This document shows positions 16,200 through 40,015 of a stretch of DNA of 64,000 nt, piece by piece. A program made the position numbers and the translations under genes. Under the pieces are notes generated by a model that saw only the letters and a list, made by a program, of their open reading frames with translations, had not been told where the DNA came from and made no database searches. This DNA is from an uncultured Acidimicrobiaceae bacterium (GTDB taxonomy: Bacteria; Actinomycetota; Acidimicrobiia; Spongiisociales; UBA5794): positions 358-64,357 of the forward strand of contig CAZPAV010000009.1 of NCBI GenBank assembly GCA_964584755.1, read 5' to 3'. Within the stretch, counting starts at the first letter, position 1. Each line of letters starts with the position of its first letter.

Positions 16200-16210
16200 C
16201 GTCGATCCTC

Positions 16211-17826: not shown

Positions 17827-17830
17827 GGGA

Positions 17831-18796: not shown

Positions 18797-18880
18797 TCCT
18801 CCTCCTCGCTCGTTCCGGTCCTCTTCACGAAGCCGTGTCTCCCGGGAACGGGGCGGGTAGGCCCGGTCCGTTCCCGCGCC

Positions 18881-20511: not shown

Positions 20512-20518
20512 GTCGCTC

Positions 20519-21823: not shown

Positions 21824-21834
21824 GGTGCTCCTCC

Positions 21835-22998
21835 TCAGGCGAACTCGAACATCAGGGACTCGGCGAAGGTCTCGACCTCCATCTGGAACTGCTCGAAGAC
21901 GGTGGTCTTCTCCTCGAACTCGAGGACGAGGTGCGGGATCCCGGCCTCGTCGAGGGCCCGGCTGTACCCGACCTGCTCCTCGAGTCCCGGTTCGCACATC
22001 TTGGCGGCGGAGACGATGGCGGCCTCGGCCCCCGACTCCTCGATACGGCGGAGGAGCATCTCCTCCTTCGGCTTGCGGGGATCGCGCTGCACCGGGCTGT
22101 AGCTGGAGGTCTCCACGTAGGCACGGGCGAGGTCGGCGACCGGGTCGCCGTCGACGGGGACGTCCTCGGTGAGCCAGCGCAGGCCGATGAGGAGGTCGTC
22201 GTCGACGACGTAGCACACGTTCTGCAGGACGGCGAGCATGTCGATGGGGGGCTGCTCGCAGAAGCCGCCCTCGATGACGACCCGGATCTTGTCCTGGGGT
22301 CTGCGGTCCCGCTCCCGGATGAGGGGGAGGGCCCGGCGCAGGATCTCGTTGTGCTCCTCGCGCGGCATGACCCCGGCGGCCCGGGTGAGCGCGTACGCCT
22401 CCACGGCGTCGATGAGCCACGGCTGCTCCCGCTTGATCTGGTACAGCTCGCGGAGGAGGCGGCGGTTCTCGTTGAACACCGCGATGCTGTGGCGGAGGTC
22501 GTCGTCGGTGACCTTCCGACCGGCGAGGTCCTCGATGATCCCGAGGATGCGGCGGTACTCGTCGGTGAGGTACGGCAGGGCCTGGCGGGAGGTCGGGTTG
22601 TGGGGGTAGTAGAGGATCTGGCACTCCATCTCGGGGAAGTTGCGTGCCCAGACGCCGAGCGAGTGGCGGGCGGCGTCGCAGATGGGGTGGGTGACGAACA
22701 TGTCGAGGAAGTCGAGGCTCCCCGAGAGGGCGAGCTCGAGCCCGGAGCGGATGATGGAGCAGACGAACGCGGCGAACCGGGCGTCGGCCTGCCGGATCTG
22801 GACGGTGCTGTCGGCCCCCATGACCTTCACCGGGAGCACGCCGGCGGCGTGGGCGAGCTCCTCGGGGAAGTACACCTGGAAGTGCCCGAGGACCTTCCCG
22901 TCGGGATGCTCCTCGAGCCAGCGCCGGGCGGCGGGGTAGCGAGGGTCCTCCACGAGCACCCGGCAGTCGTCGATGATCCTCTCGAGTTCACTGGTCAT
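21835..22998 (-). CDS. bcrC: Class I benzoyl-CoA reductase gamma subunit (BcrC/BadD-like)
   Basis: AARRW, FVCSI, PICDA, EQPW, GGFCEQPP, CYVVDDD, KMCEPGL. Confidence 0.85.
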   Translation of the reverse strand: MTSELERIIDDCRVLVEDPRYPAARRWLEEHPDGKVLGHFQVYFPEELAHAAGVLPVKVMGADSTVQIRQADARFAAFVCSIIRSGLELALSGSLDFLDMFVTHPICDAARHSLGVWARNFPEMECQILYYPHNPTSRQALPYLTDEYRRILGIIEDLAGRKVTDDDLRHSIAVFNENRRLLRELYQIKREQPWLIDAVEAYALTRAAGVMPREEHNEILRRALPLIRERDRRPQDKIRVVIEGGFCEQPPIDMLAVLQNVCYVVDDDLLIGLRWLTEDVPVDGDPVADLARAYVETSSYSPVQRDPRKPKEEMLLRRIEESGAEAAIVSAAKMCEPGLEEQVGYSRALDEAGIPHLVLEFEEKTTVFEQFQMEVETFAESLMFEFA

Positions 22999-23152: not shown

Positions 23153-24448
23153 ATGGAGACGACCTACTTCGCGCGTGAGACGGAGACGGCACCCGTCGAG
23201 CGCCTGCGCGAGATCCAGCTCACGAAGCTCAGGACGCTGCTGGAGACGATCCTGGGACGCAACCGGTTCTACACCGGGAAGCTCGCCGGCCTGGAGCCGG
23301 GGGACGTGCGTCGCGTGGAGGACCTGCGGGACCTCCCCTTCACCACGAAGGCCGAGCTCCTCGCGGCCCAGGAGGAGGGCGGAGGCTTCTCGACGAACGC
23401 CACCTTCTCCGAGAGGGCGTACACCCGCTTCCATCAGACCTCGGGCACCACCGGACGGCCCCTCCGCGTCTACGACACCGCGGAGAGCTGGGACTGGTGG
23501 GGGCGCTGTTGGGGCTACGTGCTCGCGGGCGCGGGACTCACCGCCGCGGATCGCCTCTTCGTGCCCTTCTCCTTCGGTCCGTTCATCGGGTTCTGGGCCG
23601 CGCTCGGCGGGGCCGAGAAGATCGGGGCCCTCATGATCCCCGGCGGAGGGCGCAGCTCCGTCCAGCGACTCGCCCTCATGGCCGAGCTCGGCGCGACCGC
23701 CATGTGCTGCACCCCCACCTACGCGCTCCGGCTCGCCGAGGTGGCTCGTGAGGAGGGGTTCGACCTGGACCGCATCCCCATGCGCCTCACCGTCCATGCC
23801 GGAGAGCCGGGGGCGAACGTCCCGGCGACGAAGGCCCGCATCGAGGCCGAGTGGGGGGCGAAGTGCTACGACCACGCCGGAGCCTCCGAGGTGGGCGCCC
23901 ACAGCTTCGAGTGCGAGGCCCAGCCGGGGGGGACCCACGCCATCGACAGCGAGTTCATCGTCGAGGTCGTCGATCCGACGAGCGGGGAGGCCGTGTCGCC
24001 GGGGGAGGAGGGGGAGCTCGTCGTGACCAACCTCGGTCGGGCGGGGTTCCCGGTGATCCGCTACCGCACCGGGGACGTGGTGCGGGTCGATGCGACGCCG
24101 TGCCCCTGCGGGCGGACCTTCACCCGGTTCGCCGGGGGGGTCATCGGCCGGGCCGACGACATGGTCGTGGTGCGAGGCGTCAACGTGTATCCGGGGGCCG
24201 TCGAGAACCTCGTCCGCGAGCACGAGGGGATCGACGAGTTCCGGGTGCGGGTGGTGCGGCACCGGGAGATGGCCGAGCTCGTCGTCGAGATCGAGTGCGC
24301 CCAGGGCGTCGACGCCACGGCGTCGTGCGCCGCGGTGACCGCCGCCTTCCGGGACCGTCTCGGGCTCACCCCGCGGGTGACGGCGGTGCCGCGGGACACG
24401 CTGCCGCGCTTCGAGCTCAAGGCGAAGCGATTCATCGTCGAGGGGTGA
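23153..24448 (+). CDS. paaK: Phenylacetate-CoA ligase (PaaK) family aryl-CoA ligase
   Basis: LPFTTK, QTSGTTG, YDHAGASEVG, RYRTGD, GRADDM...RGVNVYP. Confidence 0.85.
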   Translation: METTYFARETETAPVERLREIQLTKLRTLLETILGRNRFYTGKLAGLEPGDVRRVEDLRDLPFTTKAELLAAQEEGGGFSTNATFSERAYTRFHQTSGTTGRPLRVYDTAESWDWWGRCWGYVLAGAGLTAADRLFVPFSFGPFIGFWAALGGAEKIGALMIPGGGRSSVQRLALMAELGATAMCCTPTYALRLAEVAREEGFDLDRIPMRLTVHAGEPGANVPATKARIEAEWGAKCYDHAGASEVGAHSFECEAQPGGTHAIDSEFIVEVVDPTSGEAVSPGEEGELVVTNLGRAGFPVIRYRTGDVVRVDATPCPCGRTFTRFAGGVIGRADDMVVVRGVNVYPGAVENLVREHEGIDEFRVRVVRHREMAELVVEIECAQGVDATASCAAVTAAFRDRLGLTPRVTAVPRDTLPRFELKAKRFIVEG

Positions 24449-24464
24449 CGGGGCCCTCGGGCCG

Positions 24465-24941
24465 TCACTCGAGTGGGATCTCGTCGCGGTGGCCGAAGGC
24501 GACGGTGTTGTCCACGAAGAGGACACGGGTCGGGACGAGCTCGTACCACGCCACCTTCCCCAGGGCGCGGGCGATCGCGGCCGGGCCACGGGCGGCGGCG
24601 GCGACGATGGGGAACTTGCGGGCGTAGCGCGCCATCGCCGCCGCCGCGGCGGCTCCGACGAGTCGCCGGGCGGTGCCCTCGAGTTGGATACCCTGGATGG
24701 GTCGCCAGTCGGCGTAGTCCTCGTGGATCGTCCCGGCGACGTGCGGGTTCGCGGCGAGGTTCCGGGCATGCCGGGTCGTCTCCGCCGAGAGGAAGACGAG
24801 CCGGAAGTCGTCGCTGGCGTAGAAGACGGCCGCCGCCCACGGGCCGGCGGGTCCCACGGTGGCGAGCGTCAGGACGTGGTGTGCCGCGAGGTAGGCGAGC
24901 GCCCGCGTCCGGGGATCGTGCGGTGCCGCTCCCTGCTCCAC
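24465..24941 (-). CDS. Pyridoxamine 5'-phosphate oxidase-like flavin-binding protein (YhbP-like)
   Basis: HVLTLAT, WAAAVFY, TRHARNL..NP.VAGTI, IQGIQLEG; GTG 7 nt after TACCCT. Confidence 0.8.
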   Translation of the reverse strand: MEQGAAPHDPRTRALAYLAAHHVLTLATVGPAGPWAAAVFYASDDFRLVFLSAETTRHARNLAANPHVAGTIHEDYADWRPIQGIQLEGTARRLVGAAAAAAMARYARKFPIVAAAARGPAAIARALGKVAWYELVPTRVLFVDNTVAFGHRDEIPLE

Positions 24942-24988
24942 GGGCGGCAGGGTAGCCTGCGCACGACGGCGGGGAAGGAGGCGCGGGC

Positions 24989-25552
24989 GTGGAACGCATC
25001 GTCGTGGGGATCTCGGGCGCGAGCGGCGCTGTCTACGGGATTCGGCTCCTGGAGGTCCTGCGGGACGTCCCGGAGGTGGAGACCCACCTCGTGGTCAGCG
25101 GAGGTGCCCGTCGCACCATCGAGCTCGAGACGGACCTGACCCCGGAGGCGGTGGAGGGCCTCGCCGACCACGTCTACCCGCTCCGCGACCTGGCGGCGCC
25201 CATCTCCTCGGGATCCTTCCGGACGGCGGGCATGGTGGTGGCCCCCTGCTCGATGAAGACCCTCTCCGGCATCGCCAACTCCTACACGGACACCCTCTTG
25301 ACCCGGGCCGCCGACGTGACGCTGAAGGAGCGGCGGCGGCTGGTCCTCCTGCCCCGGGAGACGCCGCTCCATCTCGGGCACGCCCGTCTCATCGTCCACG
25401 CCATCGAGCTGGGTGCCATCGTCATGCCGCCGACACCCGCCTTCTACCACCACCCCCGGAGCATCGAGGACATCGTCGATCACACGGTGAGTCGGGTCCT
25501 CGACCTCTTCGGCATCGACAACGACCTCGTGGAGCGCTGGCAGGGCGCTTGA
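24989..25552 (+). CDS. ubiX: Flavin prenyltransferase UbiX
   Basis: VGISGASG, APISSGS, APCSMKTL, RAADVTLKERR, RETP, MPPTPAFY. Confidence 0.96.
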   Translation: MERIVVGISGASGAVYGIRLLEVLRDVPEVETHLVVSGGARRTIELETDLTPEAVEGLADHVYPLRDLAAPISSGSFRTAGMVVAPCSMKTLSGIANSYTDTLLTRAADVTLKERRRLVLLPRETPLHLGHARLIVHAIELGAIVMPPTPAFYHHPRSIEDIVDHTVSRVLDLFGIDNDLVERWQGA

Positions 25553-25566
25553 CGTCCCGCGATCCG

Positions 25567-25613
25567 GTTCGCTACGGTGTTCGCTATCACGAACGAGGTT
25601 CTCTATAGCGAAA
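25567..25613. promoter_or_regulatory. IclR-type operator repeats upstream of the IclR-ubiD-HAD-pps operon
   Basis: GTTCGCTATCACGAAC (25579-94), GTTCTCTATAGCGAAA (25598-613), plus half-site GTTCGCTAC (25567-75). Confidence 0.65.
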
Positions 25614-25704
25614 CCATTGGAGGACCGTCGACGGCCCCGGTCGTCGATCCACCGGGCCCGGGGAGGGACCGGTCAGGACCCCGAGGGGAGGAGGGGAGGA
25701 GCGC

Positions 25705-26481
25705 ATGTCGGCACGGGCGTCGGCCGTGGAACGGGCCATCCAGATCCTTCGCTCCTTCGAGGAGCAGGACGAGTTCTCCCTGACCGAGCTCGTCGAGCGG
25801 CTCGACCTCAACAAGAGCACCGCCCACGGGATCCTCCGCACCCTCACCGACCACCGCTTCCTCAGCCGCGACGAGGGGACCCTGCGGTACCGGCTCGGTC
25901 CGGCGCTCATCCGGCTCGGCCACCTCGCCCACGAGCAGATCGACGTGCGCCGCGTGGCGCGACCCTTCATGGAGTCCCTCATGGAGGAGACCCGCAAGTC
26001 GGTCCTCCTCGGCACCTTCCACGACGGCCGGATCACGATCATCGACAAGGTGGACCCGGTGGGCACGCTCCACGTCTCGGCCGCCATCGGCCAGCAGATC
26101 CCACTGTCGGCCGGCTCCTTCGGACGCGTGTTCCTCGCCTGGCTCCCCGAGGAGGAGGTCGACGCCCTCCTCGAGGAGCACGGCCTCGAGGCCTTCACCC
26201 CGTCCTCGATCGTCGACCCCGAGGCGTACAAGCGCGAGCTCGAGCGGGTGCGACGCCTCGGATACGCCGTCGACGACCAGGAGGAGTACCTCCTCGGCGT
26301 GCGGGCGGTCTCGGTGCCGCTCATGGACCATCGCGAGGTGGTCGCCGCGCTGACGATCGTGGGTTTCACCTCCCGCCGCGACGATCAGCCCAGCGGCGTG
26401 ACGATCAAGGCCATCACCCGGGCGGGGTGTGAGATCTCGAAGCGGCTCGGTGCCGAGACCGACGCCCGCGAAGGACCCTGA
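25705..26481 (+). CDS. IclR family transcriptional regulator
   Basis: SAVERAIQIL, LNKSTAHGILRTL, YRLGP, GYAVDDQE, AVSVP. Confidence 0.95.
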   Translation: MSARASAVERAIQILRSFEEQDEFSLTELVERLDLNKSTAHGILRTLTDHRFLSRDEGTLRYRLGPALIRLGHLAHEQIDVRRVARPFMESLMEETRKSVLLGTFHDGRITIIDKVDPVGTLHVSAAIGQQIPLSAGSFGRVFLAWLPEEEVDALLEEHGLEAFTPSSIVDPEAYKRELERVRRLGYAVDDQEEYLLGVRAVSVPLMDHREVVAALTIVGFTSRRDDQPSGVTIKAITRAGCEISKRLGAETDAREGP

Positions 26482-26509
26482 ACGACGACCCGAGAGGAGA
26501 GGGGAGCGC

Positions 26510-27946
26510 ATGCCGTTCGACGACCTGCGGTCGTTCATCGACCGACTCGACGAGGAGGGCCAGCTGGAGCGGATCCGCCGCGAGGTGGACTGGAACCTCG
26601 AGCTGAGCCACGTCGCCAAGCTCAACGAGGAGCGCCAGGGTGGTGGCTCGGCCCTCCTGTTCGAGAACGTCAAGGAGTACCCGGGGCACCGGGTCTTCAT
26701 CAGCGCCCTCACCGCGCGGGAGCGACTCGCCCTCGCGCTCGACATGCCTCAGGACACGAGCCTCATGCACCTCTCCCAGGAGTGGGTGGAGCGCATCCAC
26801 GACAACAGGGTCCCCCCCAAGGAGGTCGCCACCGGCCCGTGCAAGGAGAACGTCCTCCGCGGCGAGGACGCGGACATCACCCGCCTGCCCAGCCCGTGGT
26901 TCTACCCGGGCGACGGGGGGCGGTACCTGGGCACCGCCGGGTACCTCATCACCCGCAACCTCGAGACGGGGCGCCTCAACCTCGGCACGTACCGCGCCAT
27001 GGTCGGCTCGGCGCACGAGCTCTGCATCTACATGATCAAGGCCAAGGACGGCGAGATCGACTTCCGGGCGTACCAGGAGGCCGGCATCCCCATGCCGGTG
27101 GCGTACGTCTCCGGGTGCGACCCGACGCTCTTCCTCTGCTCGAGCACCCTCTTCGGACTCGACGAGAGCGAGTACGACGTCGCCGGGGCGCTGCGCGGCG
27201 CCCCCGTGGAGGTCGTCCGCGCGGAGACCTCCGACCTCCTCGTCCCGGCCGCCGCGGAGTGGGTCGTGGAGGGGGAGATCGTCCCCGGCGAGACCCGCCC
27301 GGAGGGCCCCTTCGGCGAGTACACCGGCCACTACTCGGGGAAGGGCGACGAGGAGCAGTACTTCATCCGGGTGAAGGCGATCACCCACCGCGACGACCCG
27401 ATCCTCTGGTCGACGACGGTGGGCCGGCCCACGACCGACACCCATATGATCATGAGCGTCAACCGCACCGCGTCCCTGTGGAACGACCTCCGGCGCATGC
27501 AGATCCCCGGCATCAGGGCCGTCTACGGTCCGCCGGCCTCGGCGGGGAGGATGCTCGTCATCATCTCCATGAAGCCCATGTACCACGGTCACTCCACGCA
27601 GGTCGGCCTGGCGGCGTTCGCCTCCACGACGGGGAACTACGGCCTGAAGACGGTCATCCTCGTCGACGAGGACATCGACCCGGAGAACATGGATCAGGTC
27701 CTCTACGCGCTGAGCTTCAAGTACCAGCCGGAGTTCGGCACCCAGATCCTCCGCCGGGGGCGCTCCACGCCGCTCGACCCCTCCCTGCCCCGATCGGACC
27801 GGTTCATGACCTCGCGCATCATCATCGACTGCACCACGCCGTACGAGTGGGGCGAGGAGGACCGGCCGCGCAAGATCGAGCTCGACGAGGCGATGGCGGC
27901 GTACGTCCGCGAGCACTGGGACGAGTACTTCGCCGGGGGGAGGTGA
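26510..27946 (+). CDS. ubiD: UbiD-family (de)carboxylase, phenylphosphate carboxylase beta (PpcB)-like
   Basis: EVDWNLELSHVAKL, DGGRYLGT, EGPFGEYTG, GRPTTDTHM, RGRSTPLDP, TSRIIID..PYEW. Confidence 0.88.
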   Translation: MPFDDLRSFIDRLDEEGQLERIRREVDWNLELSHVAKLNEERQGGGSALLFENVKEYPGHRVFISALTARERLALALDMPQDTSLMHLSQEWVERIHDNRVPPKEVATGPCKENVLRGEDADITRLPSPWFYPGDGGRYLGTAGYLITRNLETGRLNLGTYRAMVGSAHELCIYMIKAKDGEIDFRAYQEAGIPMPVAYVSGCDPTLFLCSSTLFGLDESEYDVAGALRGAPVEVVRAETSDLLVPAAAEWVVEGEIVPGETRPEGPFGEYTGHYSGKGDEEQYFIRVKAITHRDDPILWSTTVGRPTTDTHMIMSVNRTASLWNDLRRMQIPGIRAVYGPPASAGRMLVIISMKPMYHGHSTQVGLAAFASTTGNYGLKTVILVDEDIDPENMDQVLYALSFKYQPEFGTQILRRGRSTPLDPSLPRSDRFMTSRIIIDCTTPYEWGEEDRPRKIELDEAMAAYVREHWDEYFAGGR

Positions 27947-28803
27947 GCGCCACGAGGACCGGCGGCATGGAGCGGGTCGAGGGCATCGTCTTCGACATCG
28001 ACGGAACGGTGGCCCGCGGCCGCTCCGTCCTCCCCGGCGTGCTCGAGACGCTCGCCGAGCTGCGTCGGCGCGGCATCCGCTACGCCTTCCTCACCAACGA
28101 CAACACCCACCGGGTGGGGTTCTGGGTGGAGCGCCTCGCCGCCATGGGGATCGCCGCGACCCCCGAGGAGGTCGTGACCGCCGCCCTCGTCGCCGCCGAG
28201 GCGACCGCCCAGCTCCATCCCGGCAGGAGGGTCCTCCCGGTCGGGGACGTGGGGCTCCGGGAGGCGCTCGCCGCCAAGGGTCTCGAGCTCGTGGGGTACG
28301 ACGACGCCGAGCGGGCCGAGGTCGTGGTGATGGGGAAGGACCCGGAGTTCGACCAGCGGCGGCTCGCCGTCGTCTGCCGGGCCATCTGGAACGGCGCCGA
28401 GTTCCTCGCCACCAACCGGGATCCGCGCGTCCCCACCGCGGACGGCTTCGCGCCGGGGACGGGGCCCATGGTCGAGGCGGTGGCGTACGCCACGGGTCGG
28501 GAGCCCCTCGTCACCGGCAAGCCCTCGGCGTGGGCGGGGAGGATGGCCATGGAGCTCATCGGCGTGGCACCCGAACGTGGCGCCGTGGTCGGCGACCAGC
28601 TCGCCACCGACATCGCCATGGGGCGCCACGCCGGTCTGTGGACGGTGCTCGTCCTCTCCGGCGCGACTCGGGCCGGGGAGGTGGACGCCGTCCCGGAGGA
28701 CCTCCGTCCCCACGTCGTGCTCGACGACGTGACGGGCCTCGTCCCGTTGCTCGACGGGAGCACGGCGGTGGCGGAGGGATCGCGCAGGAGAGGGAGGGAG
28801 TGA
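27943..28803 (+). CDS. HAD-IIA (NagD-like) phosphatase
   Basis: FDIDGT, FLTND, ATNRD, GKPS, VGDQLATDI; overlaps both neighbours. Confidence 0.9.
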   Translation: MSATRTGGMERVEGIVFDIDGTVARGRSVLPGVLETLAELRRRGIRYAFLTNDNTHRVGFWVERLAAMGIAATPEEVVTAALVAAEATAQLHPGRRVLPVGDVGLREALAAKGLELVGYDDAERAEVVVMGKDPEFDQRRLAVVCRAIWNGAEFLATNRDPRVPTADGFAPGTGPMVEAVAYATGREPLVTGKPSAWAGRMAMELIGVAPERGAVVGDQLATDIAMGRHAGLWTVLVLSGATRAGEVDAVPEDLRPHVVLDDVTGLVPLLDGSTAVAEGSRRRGRE

Positions 28804-29891
28804 TGGAGCGGTACATCATCGACTTCGCACGCTGCGACGACTCGTGCCTGAGCCGGGTCGGCGGCAAGAGCGTCGGTCTCGGCACCATGATCCGCGCCGG
28901 CGTACCGGTCCCGCCGGGCTTCGCGGTGACGACGAACGCGTACCTCGCCGCGATCCGCGACGCGGGGATCGAGGCGGCCATCGCCGACCTCCTCGCCGGT
29001 GTGCACCCGGAGGACGTCGACGCCCTCGAGGAGATCAGCGTCGGCATCCGGGAACGGATCGAAGCGTCGGCCATCCCCTCCGAGGTCGAGGCCGCGGTGC
29101 GCGACGCCTACGAGGAGCTCTCCGGCCGGTGTGGGTATCCCGACGGGGACCTCCCCGTAGCGGTCCGCTCCTCGGCGACCGCCGAGGATCTCCCCGGCGC
29201 GAGCTTCGCCGGCCAGCAGGACACCTACCTCTGGATCGTCGGCGCCGACGCGGTGCTGACCCACGTGCGGCGCTGCTGGTCGAGCCTGTACACGGCACGC
29301 GCCATCGCCTACCGGATCGAGCAGGGGTTCGCCCACACCCAGGTGGCGATGAGCGTCTGTGTGCAGAAGATGGTGAACGCCCGGGCCGCGGGAGTGATGT
29401 TCACCCTGAACCCCTCCAACGGCGACCGGTCCAAGGTGGCCATCGACGCCGCCTGGGGACTCGGGGAGGCGGTGGCGTCCGGTGAGGTGACGCCCGACAA
29501 CTACCTCGTCGACAAGATCGTGCTCGAGATCGTGCGCAAGACGGTCTCCCCCAAGGCCGTGGAGTACCGGCCCGACGTCGCGGAGCGGCGGATGGTCCGG
29601 CGCGAGGTGGAACCGGCGCGTCGTGAGGCGCCCTGTCTCACCGACGAGGAGGTGCTCGCCCTGGCTCGCTACGGGCGGCTCATCGAGGGCCACCACGGTC
29701 GTCCCCAGGATCTCGAGTGGGCCGTGGACGCCGACCTCGAGCCGCCCGAGAACATCGTGCTGCTCCAGGCCCGACCCGAGACGGTGTGGAGCACCCGGCA
29801 GCGGGAGAACGTGACCTCCGCGGAGGGCTCGACGCTCGATCACATCGTCGCCAACCTCCTCACCGGGGTGCGACTGCGGGGAGGCGGGTGA
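28803..29891 (+). CDS. ppsB: Phenylphosphate synthase subunit B-like (ATP-binding, PEP-synthase N-terminal domain)
   Basis: VGGKS, VPPGF, AVRSSATAEDLPGASFAGQQDTYL, GEVTPD, LQARPETVWS, C-terminal IVANLLTG; no His or PEP domain. Confidence 0.85.
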   Translation: MERYIIDFARCDDSCLSRVGGKSVGLGTMIRAGVPVPPGFAVTTNAYLAAIRDAGIEAAIADLLAGVHPEDVDALEEISVGIRERIEASAIPSEVEAAVRDAYEELSGRCGYPDGDLPVAVRSSATAEDLPGASFAGQQDTYLWIVGADAVLTHVRRCWSSLYTARAIAYRIEQGFAHTQVAMSVCVQKMVNARAAGVMFTLNPSNGDRSKVAIDAAWGLGEAVASGEVTPDNYLVDKIVLEIVRKTVSPKAVEYRPDVAERRMVRREVEPARREAPCLTDEEVLALARYGRLIEGHHGRPQDLEWAVDADLEPPENIVLLQARPETVWSTRQRENVTSAEGSTLDHIVANLLTGVRLRGGG

Positions 29892-30040
29892 CCGACCACG
29901 GCCGGGTCCCCCGGAGGACCCGAGGAGCGAAGGACGCGGCGAGAGGGAGGACGCGATGAGCTGACCGGGGGGAACGAGGAGAGGAGCGGGCCCGGAGCGC
30001 CCGCGCGGCAGACAGGAACAGCGATCGTGAGGAGAGGGCG

Positions 30041-31861
30041 ATGAGCGACACCAGGTTCCCCAGTCCCTTCGAGGTGCCGACCCCCGAGGGATGCGAGGGG
30101 TGGCAGGACCTGTATCCGTACTACTACCTGTTCAGCGAGGAGCGTCGCGAGTTCGAGGAATCGAAGTTCTGGTTCTTCGACGGCATGCACCACCCGGAGG
30201 TGCTCTACCCGTTCGACACCATCACCGCGGAGAGCTGGTGGGTGGCGCTCGGAGAGATGAACTCCCGGGTGTACATCGTGCCCCCGGCTCTCGGCATCGA
30301 CCAGCGCGTCCTCAACGGCCGGCTCTACATCAGCGCCAACGCCATCATGGACGAGGAGGTCGTCGGGGCGCGCGTCCAGCACTTCATGGAGCGCGCCGGG
30401 TACTACTACGAGCACTGGGACGAGCTGTACGAGCGCTGGCAGGAGAAGGCGCGCCAGACCGTCGAGGAGCTCAAGGCCGTCGAGGTGAGGCCCCTCCCCG
30501 AGATGGAGGACCTCGAGACGGTTCGGGCCGGACGGGGACTCACCTCGGCGTACGACCTGCTCGTGGCGTACAACCGGGTCATCGAGAACATGCACAAGAT
30601 GTGGCATCTCCACTTCGAGTTCCTCAACCTGGGGTACGCCGCCTACCTGACCTTCTTCGGGCTCTGCAAGCAGCTCTTCCCCGACATCCCCGACCAGACG
30701 GTGGCGCGGATGGTGGCGGGGATCGACGTGTTGCTCTTCCGCCCCGACGCCGAGCTGAAGAAGCTCGCGAAGAAGGCGGTCGAGCTGGGCGTCGCCGACG
30801 CCTTCAAGCAGCACACCGATCCGGCGGAGGTCATCGACGTCCTGGAGCAGAGCGAGGCGGGACGGCGGTGGATCGCCGAGCTCGAACGGGTGCGGGACCC
30901 CTGGTTCTACTTCTCGACGGGCTCCGGCTTCTACCACCACCACAAGACGTGGATCAACGACGAGACCTACCCCTTCAGCGGCATCGCCGACTACATCGGG
31001 CGCATCGAGGCCGGGGAGAGCATCGAGCGGCCGCTCGAGGAGGTGAAGGCGGAGCGGGACCGGATCTCGGCGGAGTACGCGGCGCTGCTCGACGGCGACG
31101 ACCTGAAGAACTTCGAGCAGCAGCTCGCCCTGGCCCGGACGGTGTTCCCCTTCATCGAGGACCACAACTTCTACGTGGAGCACTGGCACCACGCGGTGTT
31201 CTGGAACAAGATGCGGGAGTTCGGGCAGATCTTCGTCGACGCCGGCTTCTTCGAGGAGGTGGACGACATGTTCTACCTCCATCGCTACGAGGTGCAGGCC
31301 GCGCTGTACGACCTCATCTCCTCCTGGGGGGTGGGGACGCCGGCACGCGGCCCGGGGTACTGGCCCAAGGAGATCACCCGGCGTAAGGAGCTCTTCGAGC
31401 GCCTCTCCCGGTGGACGCCGGTCCCGGCCCTCGGGGAGCCGCCGGAGGTCGTCACCGAGCCGTTCACGATCATGCTCTGGGGGATCACCACCGACTCCAT
31501 CCAGAACTGGTTGGGGATCGGCGGCGACGAGGACGCCGAGTACGACCTGAAGGGGTTCGCCGGGTCGCCGGGGACCGTCGAGGGCCCGGCCCGGGTCATC
31601 CTCAGCGCCGACGAGCTGCACCAGGTCCAGGAGGGCGAGGTCCTCGTCTGCCCGATCACGAACCCGAGCTGGGGCCCCGCGTTCTCGAAGATCGCGGCCG
31701 CGGTCACCGACATCGGGGGCATGATGTCCCATGCCTCGATCGTCTGCCGCGAGTACGGCGTCCCCGCCGTCGTCGGGACCGGGTTCGCCACCCAGCGGAT
31801 CCAGACCGGCCGGCGGGTCCGGGTCGACGGCTCCGCGGGGACGGTGACGATCCTCGACTGA
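30041..31861 (+). CDS. ppsA: Phenylphosphate synthase subunit A-like (phospho-His)
   Basis: GWQDLYPYYY, HFEFLNLGYAAY, HNFYVEHW, EPFTIMLWG, TDIGGMMSHASIVCREYG. Confidence 0.87.
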   Translation: MSDTRFPSPFEVPTPEGCEGWQDLYPYYYLFSEERREFEESKFWFFDGMHHPEVLYPFDTITAESWWVALGEMNSRVYIVPPALGIDQRVLNGRLYISANAIMDEEVVGARVQHFMERAGYYYEHWDELYERWQEKARQTVEELKAVEVRPLPEMEDLETVRAGRGLTSAYDLLVAYNRVIENMHKMWHLHFEFLNLGYAAYLTFFGLCKQLFPDIPDQTVARMVAGIDVLLFRPDAELKKLAKKAVELGVADAFKQHTDPAEVIDVLEQSEAGRRWIAELERVRDPWFYFSTGSGFYHHHKTWINDETYPFSGIADYIGRIEAGESIERPLEEVKAERDRISAEYAALLDGDDLKNFEQQLALARTVFPFIEDHNFYVEHWHHAVFWNKMREFGQIFVDAGFFEEVDDMFYLHRYEVQAALYDLISSWGVGTPARGPGYWPKEITRRKELFERLSRWTPVPALGEPPEVVTEPFTIMLWGITTDSIQNWLGIGGDEDAEYDLKGFAGSPGTVEGPARVILSADELHQVQEGEVLVCPITNPSWGPAFSKIAAAVTDIGGMMSHASIVCREYGVPAVVGTGFATQRIQTGRRVRVDGSAGTVTILD

Positions 31862-31865
31862 GGGG

Positions 31866-32339
31866 GTGCGGCGCGTGGGCGGGATCCGGGCGCGACTCGG
31901 CGGTGTCACCGACGCGGTGCTCGAGGCCGCGCTGGCGGCGGCGGGCTGGACGCCCGGATCCCCCGCCGACGGGGTCGTCTTCGACGCCCGGCGTCCCCCG
32001 GGACCGGGTTGGAAGGAGACCGCCCCGTTCCTGCGGGAGGCCTTCCTCCTCACCCGGGACGCGCTGCGGGGCGCGGCTCCGGTGGTGTACGTCGTGGCGC
32101 TCGACGACTGCTACGGGCGGGGCTCCCGCAGCGGGGCGGTGATCGCCTGCGGCCTCCTGTCGGCGGCCCGCACCGCGGCCCTCGAGGCCCGTGACGTCCC
32201 GGTGAACGTGCTCGCCGTCGGCGCGGCGGAGGACACGGCCCGGATCGCCCGTTGGGTCGTGCGCCTCCTCGAGGGCGACGGGCTCCACGGCGAGCTCGTT
32301 CGCCTCGGCGGCGGGCACCTGGGAGACGTGCAGCCATGA
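31866..32339 (+). CDS. Hypothetical protein, degenerate SDR-like C-terminal half (start uncertain)
   Basis: GLLSAARTAALE...VNVLAVG resembles the SDR helix F/strand F; no TGxxxGxG or YxxxK; ATGA-coupled to the next SDR. Confidence 0.55.
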   Translation: MRRVGGIRARLGGVTDAVLEAALAAAGWTPGSPADGVVFDARRPPGPGWKETAPFLREAFLLTRDALRGAAPVVYVVALDDCYGRGSRSGAVIACGLLSAARTAALEARDVPVNVLAVGAAEDTARIARWVVRLLEGDGLHGELVRLGGGHLGDVQP

Positions 32340-33049
32340 CCGCGGTCGTGACCGGCGCCGCCCGCGGGATCGGGTACGCCGTCGCCCGGCGCCTCGCCCG
32401 GGAGGGACCCGTGGTGCTCGTCGACGTCGCCCCCGGCGTCGCGGAGGCGGCGGCCGAGCTGGCGGGGACGGGGGCGACGGTGCGGGCGGTCCGCGCCGAC
32501 CTCACCGAGGCCTCGGGACGCGACGCGGTGCGACGGGCCGTGGAGACGACCGGGACCGGATTGCGCACGCTGGTGAACAACGCCGGGATCACCCGGGACG
32601 CCCGGCTCGTCAAGCTCACCGAGGAGGCTTTCACCGCCGTCCTGGAGGTGAACCTCGGGGCGGCGTGGCGGCTCACCGAGCTCCTCCTGCCAGCGATGGT
32701 CGACGGCGGGGCGGTCGTGAGCCTCGCCTCCCGCACCTACCTGGGGAACTTCGGTCAGTTCAACTACACGATGTCGAAGGGCGGTCTCGTCGGGCTCACC
32801 CGGGCGCTGGCGCTCGCGCTCGCCCCCCGCATCCGGGTGAACGCGGTGGCGCCGGGTCCGATCGATACCGAGATGGTCCGGGCGATCCCCGACGAGATTC
32901 GGGGGAGGATCCTCGGCATGGTCCCGGCGGCCCGCTTCGGCGCCCCCGAGGAGGTGGCCGAGCTCGTGGCCTTCCTCGCCGACGGCGCCCGCAGCGGCTT
33001 CGTCACCGGGCAGGTGATCGTCGTCGACGGCGGCCGGACGCTGCGCTGA
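32336..33049 (+). CDS. SDR oxidoreductase (FabG-like)
   Basis: VTGAARGIG, NNAGITRD, ASRTYLGNFGQFNYTMSK, VNAVAPG. Confidence 0.9.
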   Translation: MTAVVTGAARGIGYAVARRLAREGPVVLVDVAPGVAEAAAELAGTGATVRAVRADLTEASGRDAVRRAVETTGTGLRTLVNNAGITRDARLVKLTEEAFTAVLEVNLGAAWRLTELLLPAMVDGGAVVSLASRTYLGNFGQFNYTMSKGGLVGLTRALALALAPRIRVNAVAPGPIDTEMVRAIPDEIRGRILGMVPAARFGAPEEVAELVAFLADGARSGFVTGQVIVVDGGRTLR

Positions 33050-33058
33050 GGGCGCCGC

Positions 33059-34033
33059 TCAGCGGGCCCCGGCGAGGTCGGTGAGGAGGCGGCGGACGTA
33101 GACGGGGATCATGCGCTTGCGGTACCGCGAGGTGAGGTCGGTGTTCCCCATGGGTCGCACCGCCTTGCCGGCGAGCGCTCCCGCCTCCTCCACGAGCTCC
33201 GCGGACCAGGGGTGGGCGGTGAGGAGCTCCTCGGCGGCGGTGGCCCGCACCGGGGCGGAGGCGACCGCTCCGAGGACGATCCGGGCCTCCCGACAGCGGT
33301 CCCTGGCGAAGCGCAGGGCGGCGGCGACGCCGAGGATGGGGAAGTCGATCGAGCCTCGGCGGCGGAGCTTGCGATAGCCGGCGCGACGGTCGCCGAGGGA
33401 TGGGACGACGACCTCGACGAGGATCTCCTCGGGCTCCTTGGCGAGGTGGGCCATGCCGTCGTCGCGATAGAGCTCCGCCACCGGGAGGGTCCGTGTTCCG
33501 TCGGGTCCGGCGAGCCGGACGGTCGCCTCGAGGGCGACGAGGACCGGGGCGAGATCGGAGGAGAGGACCGCCCAGCACTGCCGCTTCGCCGGCGCCACCC
33601 AGCACGTCTCGCCCCCGGCCTTCAGGCAGGGCTCCGCCGCCTGCCGCCACAGGTCGGTGACGTTGAGCCAGTGGCAGCGGGTGTCGACGCAGAGGTTCCC
33701 ACCGACCGTTCCCCGGTTGCGGAGCTGCGGGGAGGCGACGAGGGCGGCGGCCGCGGCGAGGGCCTCGGGGACGTCGGGGGAGGAGGCGACGGTCGCCAGG
33801 GTGGTGAGCGTCCCGAGACGGACCGTGCCGTCCTCCGCGGTGGTGATGCCGGCGAGCCCGGGGACCGCGGCGAGGGAGACGACGGTGCCGGCGGGGAACT
33901 GGCGGCGCTTGAGGTTGGGGTAGAGGTCGGTGCCGCCGGAGACGACGACGGCGTCGTCGTGCGCGGCGAGGAGGGCGAACACCTCGGCGAGCCCCGTCGG
34001 CCGGTGGTAGGCGAAGGCGGGGAGGCGCATCAT
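33059..34033 (-). CDS. hcrB: 4-hydroxybenzoyl-CoA reductase beta-like subunit (FAD plus [4Fe-4S] insert)
   Basis: GGTDLYPNLKR, GTVGGNLCVDTRC-x15-CLK-x5-C-x8-C four-Cys insert, SIDFP. Confidence 0.82.
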   Translation of the reverse strand: MMRLPAFAYHRPTGLAEVFALLAAHDDAVVVSGGTDLYPNLKRRQFPAGTVVSLAAVPGLAGITTAEDGTVRLGTLTTLATVASSPDVPEALAAAAALVASPQLRNRGTVGGNLCVDTRCHWLNVTDLWRQAAEPCLKAGGETCWVAPAKRQCWAVLSSDLAPVLVALEATVRLAGPDGTRTLPVAELYRDDGMAHLAKEPEEILVEVVVPSLGDRRAGYRKLRRRGSIDFPILGVAAALRFARDRCREARIVLGAVASAPVRATAAEELLTAHPWSAELVEEAGALAGKAVRPMGNTDLTSRYRKRMIPVYVRRLLTDLAGAR

Positions 34034-36423
34034 CGGGCCACGGCTCCCGGGGAGTGCTCCGGGGGCGCGACCCGCCGCACCGGCCGGAAGCGATGATCGG
34101 GGATCCCCGCCGGCCCGAAGCGGCCCGGGCCGCCGCGCGCCCGGTCACGCAGCGCGGCGACGACCTTGTCGGGGCGGATGGGGGTCTCGTCGACGCGGAT
34201 CCCCAGGGCGTCGTACACGGCGTTCGCCACCGCCGGGATGACCGGGAGGAGCGGGCCCTGGCCGACCTCCTTCGCCCCGAAGGGCCCCTCGGGGTCGATG
34301 CTCTCGACGAGGATCGACTCCACCGGGGGCATCTCGAGGATGGTCGGGATCTTGTAGTCGAGGAGCGACGGTCCGTCGTGGAGGGCGCCGCGGAAGGCCT
34401 GCTCCTCCATGAGCACCTCGCCCAGGGCCATGTGCACGCTGCCCTCGATCTGGCCGACGACGAGGAGCTCGTTGATGGCCCGGCCGATGTCGTGGGCCAG
34501 CCACACCCGTTCCACGGTCACGAACCCGGTCTCCTCGTCGCAGGAGACCTCGGCCACGCACGCCGAGTACGAGTAGGCGGGGGAGGGGCCGACACCGGCG
34601 CCCCGGTACTCCCCGGAGATGCCCTTCGGGGGACGGTACGAGCCGGAGGTCACGAGCGGGCCCCAGCGAGCCTCGGCCATCCGCACCGCCTCGGCCCAGG
34701 GGATGGCGCGGTGGGGGTCGGCGGTCACCACGACGTGGCCGTCGCGGGTCGCCAGGGCGTCGGGATCGACCCCGAGCTCCTCGGCGGCGGCGACGAGGAC
34801 GAGGTCCTGGAGCTTCAACGCGGCGTCGAGGGCGGCGTTGCCGGCCATGAAGGTCACCCGGCTCGAGTAGCTCCCGAGGTCGATGGGGGTGAGGTCGGTG
34901 TCGGCGGTCACCATCGCGAGATCGGAGGCCGCGAGGCCGAGGACCTCGCCGACGATCGTGGCGAGCATCGTCGTGGAGCCCTGGCCGACGTCGGCGGCCA
35001 TGGAGGAGACGGTGACGCCGCCGCCGCGGTCCACCTTGAGCACGACCTCGGACTGGGGCATGTCGTTGAAGTAGATGGGGAACCCGGCACCCGACATGTA
35101 CGCCCCCACGGCGAGACCCACGCCCCGGCCCCGGGGGAGCGCCCCGTGGCGGCTGCGGAAGTCGGAGGCGGTCACGACGCGCTCGAGGCACTCGGCGAGC
35201 CCGCAGCTCGTGATACGGAGGTGGTTCACGGTGGCGCTGAAGGGCTCGACGAGGTTCCGCTCCCGGATCGTCACCGGGTCGAGACCGAGGTCTTCGGCGG
35301 CCTTGTCGAGGTGGCACTCGAGGGCGAAGCGGGGCTGGGGGGTCCCGTGGCCGCGCTTGGGGCCGCAGGCGGGCTTGTTCGTGTAGCAGCGGACCCCCTC
35401 CCAGCGGTAGGCGGGGATCCGGTACGTCGTCGTCTGGAGCTGTCCCGTGTAGAGGAGGCTGGCCGCGCCGTAGCTGCCGTAGGCGCCACCGTCGAGGAAG
35501 GTCTTGAACCACATGGCGGTGATGCGCCCGTCCGCGGTGAACCCCGTCCTCACCCACATGAGGACGGGATGCCGGCCGCGGTGCGCGTAGAAGACGTCCT
35601 CGCGGGTGAGGGTGATCTTCACCGGCCGGCCGGTGACGAGCGCCAGCTTGGCGGCGACGAGCTCGTGGGAGAAGACGTCGGTCTTGGCTCCGAAGCCGCC
35701 GCCCATGGGGCTCGCCACGACCCGGATGCGGGCCTCGGGGACCTCGAGCACCCGGGCGAGGATGCGGTGGAGGTAGTGGGGGACCTGGGTGGAGGACCAG
35801 ACGGTGAGCCGGCCGTCCCCCCCGACGCGGGCCACCGCGCCGTGCTCCTCGAGCGCGGCGTGGTTCGTCCCCTGGAAGAAGAAGACGTCCTCCCGGACGT
35901 GATCCGCCCGGTCGAAGCCGTCGTCGACGTCTCCGAACTCGAGCGCCATCTCGCGGTGGACGTTGCTGCGGGGACCCTCGCCGTGGATGGGCTCCTCGGT
36001 CTCCTCGAGGGCGTCGGCGATGGTGGTGACCTCGGGGAGGGGCTCGTACGTCACCTCGATGAGCGACAGGGCCCGCTCCGCGGTCTCGGGGTCCGTCGCC
36101 GCGACCGCGGCCACCGGCTCGCCGACGTGGCGGACCTTGCCCACGGCGAGGGCGTGCTCGTCCTGGTCGACGGGGAGGAGGCCGTAGGGGACGGGGAAGT
36201 CGGCCCCGGTGAGGACGGCGTGAACGCCGGGGAGCGCCGCGGCGGCGGTCGTGTCGATGGAGACGATCCGGGCGTGGGCTCGAGTGGAGCGGAGCAGGCG
36301 GCCGGTGAGCATCCGGGGGAAGGCGAGGTCGTCGACGTAGACGGTGCCGCCGGTGGCGTGGGCGAGGGCGTCGACCCGGGGAGCGGACCCGCCGACGATG
36401 CGGTTCGTGGGCTCGATCCTCAT
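34030..36423 (-). CDS. hcrA: 4-hydroxybenzoyl-CoA reductase alpha-like subunit (molybdopterin, XDH family)
   Basis: STQVPHY, GGGFG, HRGRHP, GPKRGHG, DLGSYSSRVTFMAGNA, DPEGPFGAKE. Confidence 0.82.
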   Translation of the reverse strand: MRIEPTNRIVGGSAPRVDALAHATGGTVYVDDLAFPRMLTGRLLRSTRAHARIVSIDTTAAAALPGVHAVLTGADFPVPYGLLPVDQDEHALAVGKVRHVGEPVAAVAATDPETAERALSLIEVTYEPLPEVTTIADALEETEEPIHGEGPRSNVHREMALEFGDVDDGFDRADHVREDVFFFQGTNHAALEEHGAVARVGGDGRLTVWSSTQVPHYLHRILARVLEVPEARIRVVASPMGGGFGAKTDVFSHELVAAKLALVTGRPVKITLTREDVFYAHRGRHPVLMWVRTGFTADGRITAMWFKTFLDGGAYGSYGAASLLYTGQLQTTTYRIPAYRWEGVRCYTNKPACGPKRGHGTPQPRFALECHLDKAAEDLGLDPVTIRERNLVEPFSATVNHLRITSCGLAECLERVVTASDFRSRHGALPRGRGVGLAVGAYMSGAGFPIYFNDMPQSEVVLKVDRGGGVTVSSMAADVGQGSTTMLATIVGEVLGLAASDLAMVTADTDLTPIDLGSYSSRVTFMAGNAALDAALKLQDLVLVAAAEELGVDPDALATRDGHVVVTADPHRAIPWAEAVRMAEARWGPLVTSGSYRPPKGISGEYRGAGVGPSPAYSYSACVAEVSCDEETGFVTVERVWLAHDIGRAINELLVVGQIEGSVHMALGEVLMEEQAFRGALHDGPSLLDYKIPTILEMPPVESILVESIDPEGPFGAKEVGQGPLLPVIPAVANAVYDALGIRVDETPIRPDKVVAALRDRARGGPGRFGPAGIPDHRFRPVRRVAPPEHSPGAVAR

Positions 36424-36884
36424 GCGCCGCTCCCCGCCGCCGCCGCCACGGCGCGGACGATGCTGAGGTATCCGGTGCAGCGACACATGTTCCCGGCGAG
36501 CGCCTCCCGGATCTCCGTCTCGGACGGATGGGGGACGCGGTCGAGGAGAGCCTTGGCGGTGAGGATCATCGCCGGGGTGCAGTAGCCGCACTGGGAGGCG
36601 CCGAAGGCGGCGAAGCTCTCCTGGAGCGGGTGGGGGTGGGCGATCGTGCCGAGCCCCTCGATGGTGGTGACCTCGTGGTCGGCGGCGTCGACGGCGAGGA
36701 GGAGGCAGGAGAGCTGGGGGACGCCATCGACGAGGACGGTGCAGGCGCCGCACTCCCCGAGCTCGCAGCCGTGCTTCGTGCCGGTGAGTTCGAGGTCCTC
36801 ACGGAGCACCTCGAGGAGCGTCCGGTGGGGGGGAGCGACGAGCTCGTAGCGATCTCCGTTGACCACCAACGCCAGCGGCTCCAT
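36420..36884 (-). CDS. hcrC: 4-hydroxybenzoyl-CoA reductase gamma-like subunit (2x[2Fe-2S])
   Basis: GTKHGCELGECGACTV, SCL, QCGYCTP, GNMCRCTGY; order C-A-B. Confidence 0.82.
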   Translation of the reverse strand: MEPLALVVNGDRYELVAPPHRTLLEVLREDLELTGTKHGCELGECGACTVLVDGVPQLSCLLLAVDAADHEVTTIEGLGTIAHPHPLQESFAAFGASQCGYCTPAMILTAKALLDRVPHPSETEIREALAGNMCRCTGYLSIVRAVAAAAGSGA

Positions 36885-39278: not shown

Positions 39279-39279
39279 G

Positions 39280-39720: not shown

Positions 39721-39809
39721 AGGGTATCGCCTCCCTCTCTCGATGCGTGGGGGAGCCGTCCGGCCGTTCGGTCGAACAGGGACATCGTCTCGCCCCCGCC
39801 CGGGCGGCG

Positions 39810-39990
39810 TCAATGAGGCAAGCGCACCATTTTACCGATGTATCGGGATCAGCGCATGGCACGATCGGAGGCGACGTCCTGCGGCACCACCGACTCCTGA
39901 TGCAATGGTACCACCGAAATGATGCCGTTCGCGGATTGACCGGACGGTGAGGGGCGACGACGCTGATAACCAACCGACCGGCCGGACGGT
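39810..39990. promoter_or_regulatory. Divergent promoter region with operator-like palindromes
   Basis: Minus-strand TAAAAT (39834-29); CCGATGTATCGG palindrome (39835-46); TGACCGGACGGTGA (39937-50). Confidence 0.5.
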
Positions 39991-40015
39991 AGAGGAGCTC
40001 ACGGGAGGTGACACC

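Follow-up and report, generated by a model that had tools for sequence, protein, structure and literature searches.

The described systems closest to the locus reported here are the phenylphosphate synthase and carboxylase of Thauera aromatica (PpsABC and PpcABCD) and the reduced pps-ppcB clusters of Desulfatiglans anilini and Geobacter metallireducens. In Thauera, phenylphosphate carboxylation requires PpcD, a phosphatase-family subunit (PMC6114531). The phenol cluster of D. anilini contains ppsA, ppsB, and one ppcB together with genes for a UbiX-like protein, a phenylacetate-CoA-ligase-like ligase, and subunits of the 4-hydroxybenzoyl-CoA reductase (4-HBCR) type; ppsC, ppcA, and ppcD occur unlinked in the genome, which lacks ppcC (PMC6114531). 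The same paper gives the same reduced cluster for G. metallireducens, so that this reduced ("minimal") arrangement is already known from both organisms, as an earlier note on the present DNA had stated for Geobacter. What lets PpcB alone carboxylate phenylphosphate in strict anaerobes has been a question since the Geobacter work and was repeated in the Desulfatiglans paper (PMC6114531). Here we analyze a 64,000-nt stretch of contig CAZPAV010000009.1 from an uncultured Acidimicrobiaceae bacterium (the window, by which we mean this whole stretch), in which genes for an IclR-family regulator, a UbiD-family (de)carboxylase, a HAD-IIA phosphatase, and PpsB-like and PpsA-like subunits follow one another at 25705-31861. 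On the strength of its sequence, we consider it likely that this locus is the phenol-activating module of an island for anaerobic conversion of phenol to benzoyl-CoA in an uncultured Acidimicrobiia bacterium of hydrothermal vents and mats.

Gene Content of the Locus

Because the window is about 72% G+C, genes were called from third-position GC content (GC3) by frame analysis, followed by Pfam and NCBIfam scans. Gene content, family assignments, conservation, and synteny are given below as observed. The order IclR-ubiD-HAD-ppsB-ppsA on one strand, which the earlier note had read from the letters, was borne out by the GC3 frames and by both profile libraries; it runs on the + strand from the iclR ATG at 25705 to the ppsA stop at 31861. 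Including the ubiX gene that precedes it, the module comprises the following:

24989..25552, + strand: UbiX flavin prenyltransferase, putative source of prenylated FMN (prFMN) for UbiD (NF004685, 271 bits against a cut-off of 188)
25705..26481, + strand: IclR-family regulator (HTH_IclR and IclR_C)
26510..27946, + strand: PpcB-like UbiD-family (de)carboxylase, the single UbiD of the window (UbiD_N, UbiD, and UbiD_C; TIGR02724, 425.7 bits)
27967..28803, alternative GTG start 27943, + strand: HAD-IIA protein of the NagD / p-nitrophenyl-phosphatase type (Hydrolase_6 and Hydrolase_like)
28803..29891, + strand: PpsB-like ATP-binding subunit, PPDK_N only (PF01326, 379 bits, whole protein covered)
30041..31861, + strand: PpsA-like subunit with a helical substrate-binding domain and a C-terminal phospho-His swivel (NF006153, PRK08296 family, 910 bits)

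The overlapping stops and starts that had been claimed for the middle genes are found in part. The HAD stop and PpsB start share the sequence TGATG, and UbiD and HAD overlap by 4 nt (GTGA) only if the GTG at 27943 is used, the ATG at 27967 leaving a gap of 20 nt; PpsB and PpsA, by contrast, are 149 nt apart with no overlap. The gap between IclR and UbiD is 28 nt. Within the PpsB-PpsA spacer, at 29913-29961, a 16-nt purine-rich direct repeat, GGAGGACNCGANGAGC, occurs twice, 33 nt apart.

Predicted Phenylphosphate Synthase

The PpsB-like protein is a separate polypeptide of about 362-363 residues, in agreement with the roughly 40-kDa beta subunit of a PpsABC-type synthase. PPDK_N spans its whole length, in accordance with the earlier description of a stand-alone ATP-binding domain, and in Pfam and NCBIfam it matches just the N-terminal third of the phosphoenolpyruvate (PEP) synthase and rifampin phosphotransferase models. 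PpsA, at 606 residues, agrees with the alpha subunit of about 70 kDa, passes all PRK08296 models, and has its PEP-utilizers domain (PF00391) at residues 530-600. The phospho-His motif MSHASIVCREY (GGMMSHASIVCREYGVPAVVG) that had been pointed out in PpsA is indeed intact: the His of the swivel-domain motif GGMMSHASIVCREY is H564, which is invariant in 12 relatives. An AlphaFold (AF2) model of PpsA (predicted local distance difference test, pLDDT, 72.8; predicted template-modeling score, pTM, 0.71) gave rifampin phosphotransferase as its sole full-length structural match (E 2.5e-13; template-modeling score, TM, about 0.47). Because this was the only full-length match, PpsB and PpsA look like a split phosphotransferase consisting of ATP-grasp, substrate domain, and His swivel, a layout that agrees with the description of the Thauera phenylphosphate synthase in PMC6114531.

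No CBS-pair or AcuB-like protein that could represent the stimulatory gamma subunit PpsC (about 24 kDa) was found across the 64-kb window. In D. anilini ppsC is unlinked or doubtful (PMC6114531), and that paper describes the gamma subunit as dispensable for synthase activity.

A scan of genome collections with a PpsA alignment was evaluated for the best 80 of more than 592 relatives, none of the 80 being from a characterized organism; loci from the scans are cited by L numbers. In a neighbor-joining (NJ) tree, PpsA of the window lies in a clade in which every locus has a UbiD (PpcB-like) and a HAD. It belongs to none of the other clades, of which some combine a UbiD with UPF0261, an LpdD-like gene, or both in the absence of HAD, some are linked to molybdenum (Mo) hydroxylases, some have a distant HAD only, and some show none of these features. 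Among these 80, nearly all loci whose PpsA is at least 59% identical have UbiD, HAD, PpsB, and PpsA together, and their hosts are Acidimicrobiia, Chloroflexota/Anaerolineae, one metagenome-assembled genome (MAG) of Gammaproteobacteria, and one of Bacillota.

Two arrangements outside the window concern the same kinase family. In L004 (8060-11821) and L089 one PpsB is accompanied by a tandem pair of PpsA paralogues, which share about 54% and 80% identity with PpsA of the window; this suggests two substrate-binding subunits served by a single ATP-binding subunit. A separate PpsA/PpsB clade (L021, L031, L039, L045, L051, L056, L061, L063, L073, L074, and L076) is accompanied by XDH-family Mo-hydroxylase subunits without UbiD; its hosts are mostly of aerobic type (Mycobacterium, Pusillimonas, Ancylobacter, Pseudonocardia, and Solirubrobacterales), and it looks like an uncharacterized aryl-kinase pathway.

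Predicted Carboxylase

The best NCBIfam match of the UbiD protein is the phenylphosphate carboxylase beta subunit, PpcB (425.7 bits), ahead of VdcC (350) and ubiquinone UbiD (208); a grouping with ubiquinone or vanillate decarboxylases, which the earlier note had named as the outcome contrary to its proposal, was not seen. PpcB was likewise the best family for all nine UbiDs that lie beside PpsAB in other loci (420-582 bits, five of them above the cut-off), and because of this shared ranking we place the UbiD of the window, by sequence, in a divergent branch of the PpcB group. Three UbiD domains, the adjoining ubiX, and the motifs NLGTYR, SEYD, and EGPFGE, which align with those of PhdA, VdcC, and Escherichia coli UbiD, identify it as a member of the prFMN-dependent UbiD family. 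NLGTYR and EGPFGE presumably hold the catalytic Arg and Glu residues, judging by Fdc1 and UbiD. Its best PDB match is the phenazine-1-carboxylate decarboxylase PhdA, which we do not count as functional evidence since there is no PpcB structure for comparison.

Neither a second UbiD or alpha subunit PpcA (TIGR02723) nor, by Pfam scans or by tblastn with the L088 homologue, the gamma subunit PpcC (PF09662, Phenyl_P_gamma) occurs in the 64-kb window. The same window holds no homologue of the L088 protein that resembles the delta subunit PpcD, a small KdsC-type HAD for which NCBIfam has no model. The claim that PpsC and PpcA/C/D are missing therefore holds for the window by profile scans and tblastn. 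When all open reading frames (ORFs) of 24 loci were clustered for hidden small subunits, only NUDIX and UPF0261 appeared besides shadow ORFs, and no PpcC-like or PpsC-like gene.

HAD-IIA Phosphatase

The HAD protein has 278 residues and scores 134.1 bits to TIGR01460 (cut-off 100.15), which assigns it to HAD-IIA. The catalytic motifs DxDGT, TN, GKP, and GDxxxTD are intact as FDIDGT, LTND, GKPS, and GDQLATD, and its best PDB matches are the p-nitrophenyl phosphatases 3qgm and 4kn8. Of the roughly 57 informative loci, which come from Acidimicrobiia, Chloroflexota, and other phyla, about 53 have UbiD directly 5' of HAD; some of the metagenome loci are near-duplicates, so that fewer of these cases are independent. 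The order UbiD then HAD is kept where the pps genes are permuted or split by IclR. A metagenome scan with an HAD alignment returned 49 loci with HAD at least 56% identical, and all of those with enough flank have pps or ppc genes. Across loci, HAD is mostly complementary to UPF0261 and LpdD-like accessory genes. The reduced set had been described in the earlier note as PpsAB plus one UbiD; the absence of PpsC and PpcA/C/D stands, but the set is not simply that, because HAD is a conserved and distinctive element and not a bystander.

We propose that the HAD protein is probably, as judged from sequence and gene order, the dephosphorylating partner of the carboxylase, either in the manner of PpcD or as a product phosphatase in the manner of HpeD, two roles that are about equally plausible. 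HpeD is NagD-like and hydrolyses the carboxylated phospho-intermediate of the Hpe pathway without stimulating its carboxylase (PMC9618137). In the literature searched, no paper ties a HAD-IIA protein to phenylphosphate carboxylation, and a conserved HAD-IIA accessory of the reduced pps-ppcB cluster appears to be undescribed in such a role. More tentatively, and short of an even chance in our estimation, UbiD and HAD-IIA could together form a two-component phenylphosphate carboxylase, a widespread nonorthologous alternative to the four-subunit Thauera enzyme. In such an enzyme the NagD-type phosphatase would provide an irreversible dephosphorylation, either handing phenolate to UbiD or hydrolysing 4-phosphobenzoate. 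If true, this would answer what replaces PpcA/C/D in reduced clusters, and UPF0261 with the LpdD-like protein would be a second alternative set for lineages that lack HAD.

Several related arrangements were seen in other loci. Where HAD is missing from PpsAB-UbiD loci (L017, L024, L025, L029, L075, and L085), a UPF0261 gene (about 415 aa) and/or a small LpdD-chaperone-like gene adjoins UbiD, and L085 has two UbiDs, one followed by HAD and the other by UPF0261 and LpdD; these genes may serve the carboxylase as an alternative accessory set. In a marine-metagenome subclade (L085 at 8841-9236, L105-L124, and L133), HAD is followed by a conserved ORF of about 131 aa that has no Pfam match. A Thauera-like locus, L088 (1-11772), carries in order UbiD, a small PpcD-like HAD, UbiD, Phenyl_P_gamma, UbiD, UbiX, a PNPOx gene, a fusion gene, PpsA, PpsB, and NUDIX, and the layout of L134 is of the same kind. 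The fusion gene encodes 398 aa, a CTP-dependent riboflavin kinase joined to HAD-IIA. Among the 120 best HAD homologues no UbiD-HAD fusion was found, the riboflavin-kinase::HAD fusion being the only one.

A Predicted Route from Phenol to Benzoyl-CoA

The module is flanked by genes for the steps that would follow carboxylation:

18881..22998, - strand: four-subunit class-I benzoyl-CoA-reductase (BCR)-like enzyme, with BcrC-like, BcrB-like, and two ATPase subunits (NCBIfam)
23153..24448, + strand: PaaK-like aryl-CoA ligase, candidate 4-hydroxybenzoate-CoA ligase (NCBIfam PaaK, 263 bits, below cut-off)
33059..34033, - strand: HcrB, 4-hydroxybenzoyl-CoA reductase beta subunit (FAD and 4Fe-4S insertion; 191.7 bits to Thauera 1rm6_B)
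34030..36423, - strand: HcrA, 4-hydroxybenzoyl-CoA reductase alpha subunit (Mo; 622.6 bits to Thauera 1rm6_A)
36420..36884, - strand: HcrC, 4-hydroxybenzoyl-CoA reductase gamma subunit (2Fe-2S; TIGR03193, 168 bits, below cut-off)

HcrB aligns with 1rm6_B without gaps through the Cys-rich insertion, all aligned Cys being conserved, and HcrA scores 622.6 bits to 1rm6_A, the next structure reaching 274; the TIGR03193 score of HcrC is similar to those of other XDH-family small subunits. With three XDH-family subunits and a beta subunit that has the diagnostic Cys-rich insertion, the enzyme is, by sequence, a genuine 4-HBCR. The BCR-like subunits score 293.6 bits (TIGR02263), 185 bits (TIGR02260), and 274 and 193 bits (TIGR00241). 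The PaaK-like ligase is kept beside the module in nine loci, and ligases of the same type occur in the phenol clusters of D. anilini (ORF14) and Thauera (PMC6114531). All genes of a reduced pps-ppcB cluster, without ppsC or ppcACD, thus lie within 23153-36884.

The reading of the locus as one for phenol to 4-hydroxybenzoate is well supported because UbiX, the PaaK-like ligase, HcrCAB, the BCR-like set, and ring-hydrolysis genes adjoin it, and the island looks like a complete set for oxygen-free phenol breakdown. The phenylphosphate synthase and PpcB-type carboxylase proposed in the earlier note accordingly find support in the UbiD family ranking, the PpsA clade, and these pathway neighbors. 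In D. anilini, where the cluster content is the same, phenylphosphate formation was shown experimentally (PMC6114531).

We infer the catalytic steps, together with the substrate and the role of HAD, as follows. PpsB would bind ATP and charge the conserved His in the PpsA swivel domain, and PpsA, whose helical domain resembles the substrate domain of rifampin phosphotransferase, would pass the phosphoryl group to phenol to give phenylphosphate. The single PpcB-like UbiD would then carboxylate the para position with prFMN from the adjoining UbiX, and the HAD-IIA aryl-phosphatase would strip the phosphate and so make the step irreversible, acting either with the carboxylase (PpcD-like) or on 4-phosphobenzoate (HpeD-like). 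The PaaK-like ligase would join 4-hydroxybenzoate to CoA, HcrCAB would take off the hydroxyl group, and the BCR-like enzyme would dearomatize the ring, while IclR, acting at a conserved GTTC/GAAC operator, probably regulates the operon.

Evaluation of Alternative Readings

Several points weigh against the phenol to benzoyl-CoA reading. UbiD remains below the PpcB equivalog cut-off (TIGR02724, 425.7 against 468.95), as do HcrA (TIGR03194, 862.7 against 994.55), HcrB (TIGR03195, 277 against 404.55), HcrC, and all BCR-like subunits with respect to theirs. In Thauera and D. anilini the characterized carboxylases depend on two UbiD-type subunits (PMC6114531; PMC7500099), and one is encoded here. 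The PpsA tree is an NJ tree of scan loci, among which the characterized Thauera, Geobacter, CreHI, and HpeHI sequences do not figure; among the 80 best relatives, PpsA homologues of aerobic Actinomycetota are 54-57% identical and occur without UbiD in other contexts, and the PpsA family includes kinases for other phenolics (PMC9618137). The locus was absent from the sole RNA run of the matching sample. As to the HAD protein, L088 and L134 have PpcC and PpcD alongside HAD-IIA, which speaks against the PpcD-like role in particular.

The scores of UbiD and of the Hcr subunits below their equivalog cut-offs would also suit the same machinery acting on another substrate, such as catechol, hydroquinone, cresol, a halogenated or otherwise substituted phenol, or aniline, which we regard as unlikely. 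PpsAB homologues with other specificities do exist, namely CreHI for 4-cresol and HpeHI for hydroxyphenylethanones (PMC9618137) and the characterized phenylphosphoamidate synthase for aniline (PMC7500099), and the aniline cluster of D. anilini also has a 4-HBCR-like enzyme. However, HcrB and HcrA of the window resemble Thauera 4-HBCR far more than they do other solved Mo-hydroxylases and keep the special insertion, and the module has no genes for protocatechuate, gentisate, or methyl-group chemistry. Aniline in particular was ranked low because in D. anilini the alpha subunit of the aniline kinase shares only about 27% identity with PpsA, whereas PpsA of the window passes every PRK08296 model. 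The earlier note had left the choice among phenol, catechol, and a substituted phenol; the adjoining 4-HBCR and ligase favor conversion of phenol to 4-hydroxybenzoate, with phenol preferred to catechol or aniline, but do not set other phenolics aside.

It is also conceivable, if doubtful, that HAD-IIA acts outside carboxylation, either in flavin or prFMN supply with UbiX, PNPOx, NUDIX, and riboflavin kinase or as a safety valve for phenylphosphate, which would leave the pathway reading unaffected. A cofactor-related role draws its plausibility from L088, because HAD-IIA is there fused to riboflavin kinase beside UbiX, PNPOx, and NUDIX even though PpcC and PpcD are present, with a similar layout in L134; in L016, moreover, HAD lies between PpsB and UbiX, away from UbiD. 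Such a role is nevertheless disfavored because of the near-constant adjacency of UbiD and HAD and because, to our knowledge, the UbiX chemistry that makes prFMN from FMN and dimethylallyl monophosphate needs no phosphatase step. In about 53 of the 57 informative loci HAD comes directly after UbiD and not after UbiX, which is often several genes off; HAD-less loci retain UbiX and NUDIX; and pps/ppc contexts were the only ones in which the scans placed this HAD subfamily. Very improbable, in our view, is an aerobic "protective phosphorylation" of the Cre/Hpe type, in which the hydroxyl group would be masked, the side chain modified, and the product unmasked by the NagD-like protein, with UbiD as a decarboxylase. 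HpeD is NagD-like, as is the HAD of the window (PMC9618137), and among the 80 best relatives the aerobic Actinomycetota homologues at 54-57% identity are common, some with a HAD about 32% identical. Against this, genes for a biotin carboxylase, a P450, or an acetophenone carboxylase are missing from the 64-kb window, which has the kinase and phosphatase types of the Hpe/Cre pathways but not their side-chain-modifying enzymes; the neighboring genes encode oxygen-sensitive enzymes of anaerobic metabolism (BCR-like, 4-HBCR, and ferredoxin oxidoreductases); and the PpsA clade of the window is apart from the HAD-only and no-UbiD clades in the NJ tree. We therefore retain anaerobic phenol activation, with HAD-IIA as a partner of the carboxylase, as the favored reading.

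Neighboring Genes, Regulation, and Source

Further features around the module are the following:

24465..24941, - strand: PNPOx-like FMN-binding protein (Pfam PNPOx_N, 55 bits)
25549..25601, + strand: candidate promoter TTGACG-N18-TACGGT and operator GTTC-N8-GAAC-N3-GTTC upstream of iclR (sequence reading and repeat scan)
31866..32339, + strand: ORF of 154-157 aa with no Pfam or NCBIfam match and a coding GC3 pattern
32336..33049, + strand: short-chain dehydrogenase (SDR; adh_short_C2, 174 bits)

The PNPOx-like gene (- strand) and ubiX (+ strand) form a divergent pair at 24465-25552 that recurs in L005-L007, L020, L087, L088, and many metagenome loci and may be a small unit for flavin/prFMN supply. 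A Zn-ribbon NUDIX gene stands beside UbiX or pps in L004 (2415-2918), L009, L010, L011, L014, L017, L018, L034, L088, and many metagenome loci, and could plausibly provide UbiX with dimethylallyl monophosphate; the cluster of the window has no counterpart, the only NUDIX gene, at 12867-13400, being unrelated. The iclR gene is a conserved part of the module, and its product shows a below-cut-off resemblance (136 bits) to the PcaR/PcaU/PobR subfamily. The repeat GTTC-N8-GAAC-N3-GTTC at 25579-25601 follows the candidate promoter, and its core GAAC-N3-GTTC is found upstream of iclR in six further loci from two phyla (L004, L005, L007, L015, L020, and L087), which makes it a candidate IclR operator; a scan for sigma-70 promoters and terminators gave nothing above shuffled sequences.

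The ORF at 31866-32339, between PpsA and the SDR, is found elsewhere only in the same-organism contigs L001 and L002, and its C-terminal half, compared by eye (…VNVLAVG…), is possibly a degenerate SDR-like sequence. The - strand genes at 14797-22998 encode a TetR/BetI-like regulator, a BadH-like SDR, two CoA-transferase subunits, an Oah/BadI-like crotonase, and the four BCR-like subunits, all below cut-offs, and the segment is near-syntenic in L087, a MAG labeled Acidobacteria (GCA_022562055.1). On the other side, 37036-51579 begins with a PrpF-like isomerase, a thiolase with an OB-fold (DUF35/BbsA-like) partner, an HMGL-like (homocitrate/isopropylmalate-synthase-like) protein, and indolepyruvate:ferredoxin oxidoreductase alpha and beta subunits, and continues with 2-oxoacid:ferredoxin oxidoreductase alpha, beta, and gamma subunits, a TetR regulator, a family-III CoA-transferase, an enoyl-CoA hydratase, an SDR, and LeuC/LeuD-like dehydratase subunits. 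These genes could be the lower pathway together with ferredoxin regeneration for the ring reductase.

Housekeeping genes lie on either side of the island. The closest homologues of PpsA (among the 80 best), UbiD, and also GroEL are in Acidimicrobiia MAGs, including UBA5794. An identical PpsA occurs in three JGI metagenomes, and sequencing runs that match the locus carry the labels hydrothermal vent and microbial mat metagenome. The paper on the UBA5794 order reports bcrBC and bbsA in some sediment members only, in scattered form, and does not mention phenol (PMC12008989).

Comparison with Known Systems

The island extends complete anaerobic phenol/benzoyl-CoA catabolism, as predicted here, to uncultured hydrothermal Acidimicrobiia. 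It also offers testable candidates for carboxylation in reduced clusters, namely HAD-IIA, nearly always after UbiD in one large clade, and the UPF0261/LpdD-like proteins in another. UbiX, UbiD, and HAD could, moreover, give a simpler biocatalyst for the para-carboxylation of phenols.

Among enzymes of known structure, rifampin phosphotransferase (RPH-Lm; PDB 5fbt and 5hv1) has the same order of ATP-grasp, helical substrate-binding, and C-terminal His-swivel domains as PpsB followed by PpsA. It is, however, one polypeptide, whereas the window encodes the ATP-grasp domain separately, as PpsB; sequence identity amounts to about 15-16%, and there is no relation between the substrates. The Hpe pathway for acetovanillone and 4-hydroxyacetophenone (Rhodococcus rhodochrous GD02) and the Cre pathway (Corynebacterium glutamicum) share with the window a PpsAB-homologous kinase and a NagD-like phosphatase, and the likeness extends to carboxylation on a phosphorylated intermediate (PMC9618137). 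The Hpe pathway is aerobic, and its biotin-dependent carboxylase has the acetyl side chain as its target, whereas the carboxylase of the window is a UbiD in an anaerobic context.

Thauera aromatica and the window share a His-swivel kinase made of two proteins (about 70 and 40 kDa), a UbiD-type carboxylase, a carboxylase-linked phosphatase-family protein, a UbiX-like gene in the cluster, and, later in the pathway, 4-HBCR and class-I BCR. Relative to Thauera, the window is without PpsC, the second UbiD (PpcA), and the gamma subunit, its UbiD is below the PpcB cut-off, and its phosphatase is a 278-aa HAD-IIA protein of the NagD type, whereas Thauera PpcD is an 18-kDa protein of the KdsC type. With D. 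anilini and G. metallireducens the window has in common ppsA, ppsB, a single ppcB-like gene, and genes for a UbiX-like protein, a PaaK-like ligase, and 4-HBCR, with no ppsC or ppcACD in the cluster. The published cluster descriptions set it apart by its HAD-IIA gene directly after ubiD and by its IclR-type regulator. Its ring reductase is of the ATP-dependent class I, whereas theirs is of the tungsten Bam type, and its host belongs to the Acidimicrobiia.

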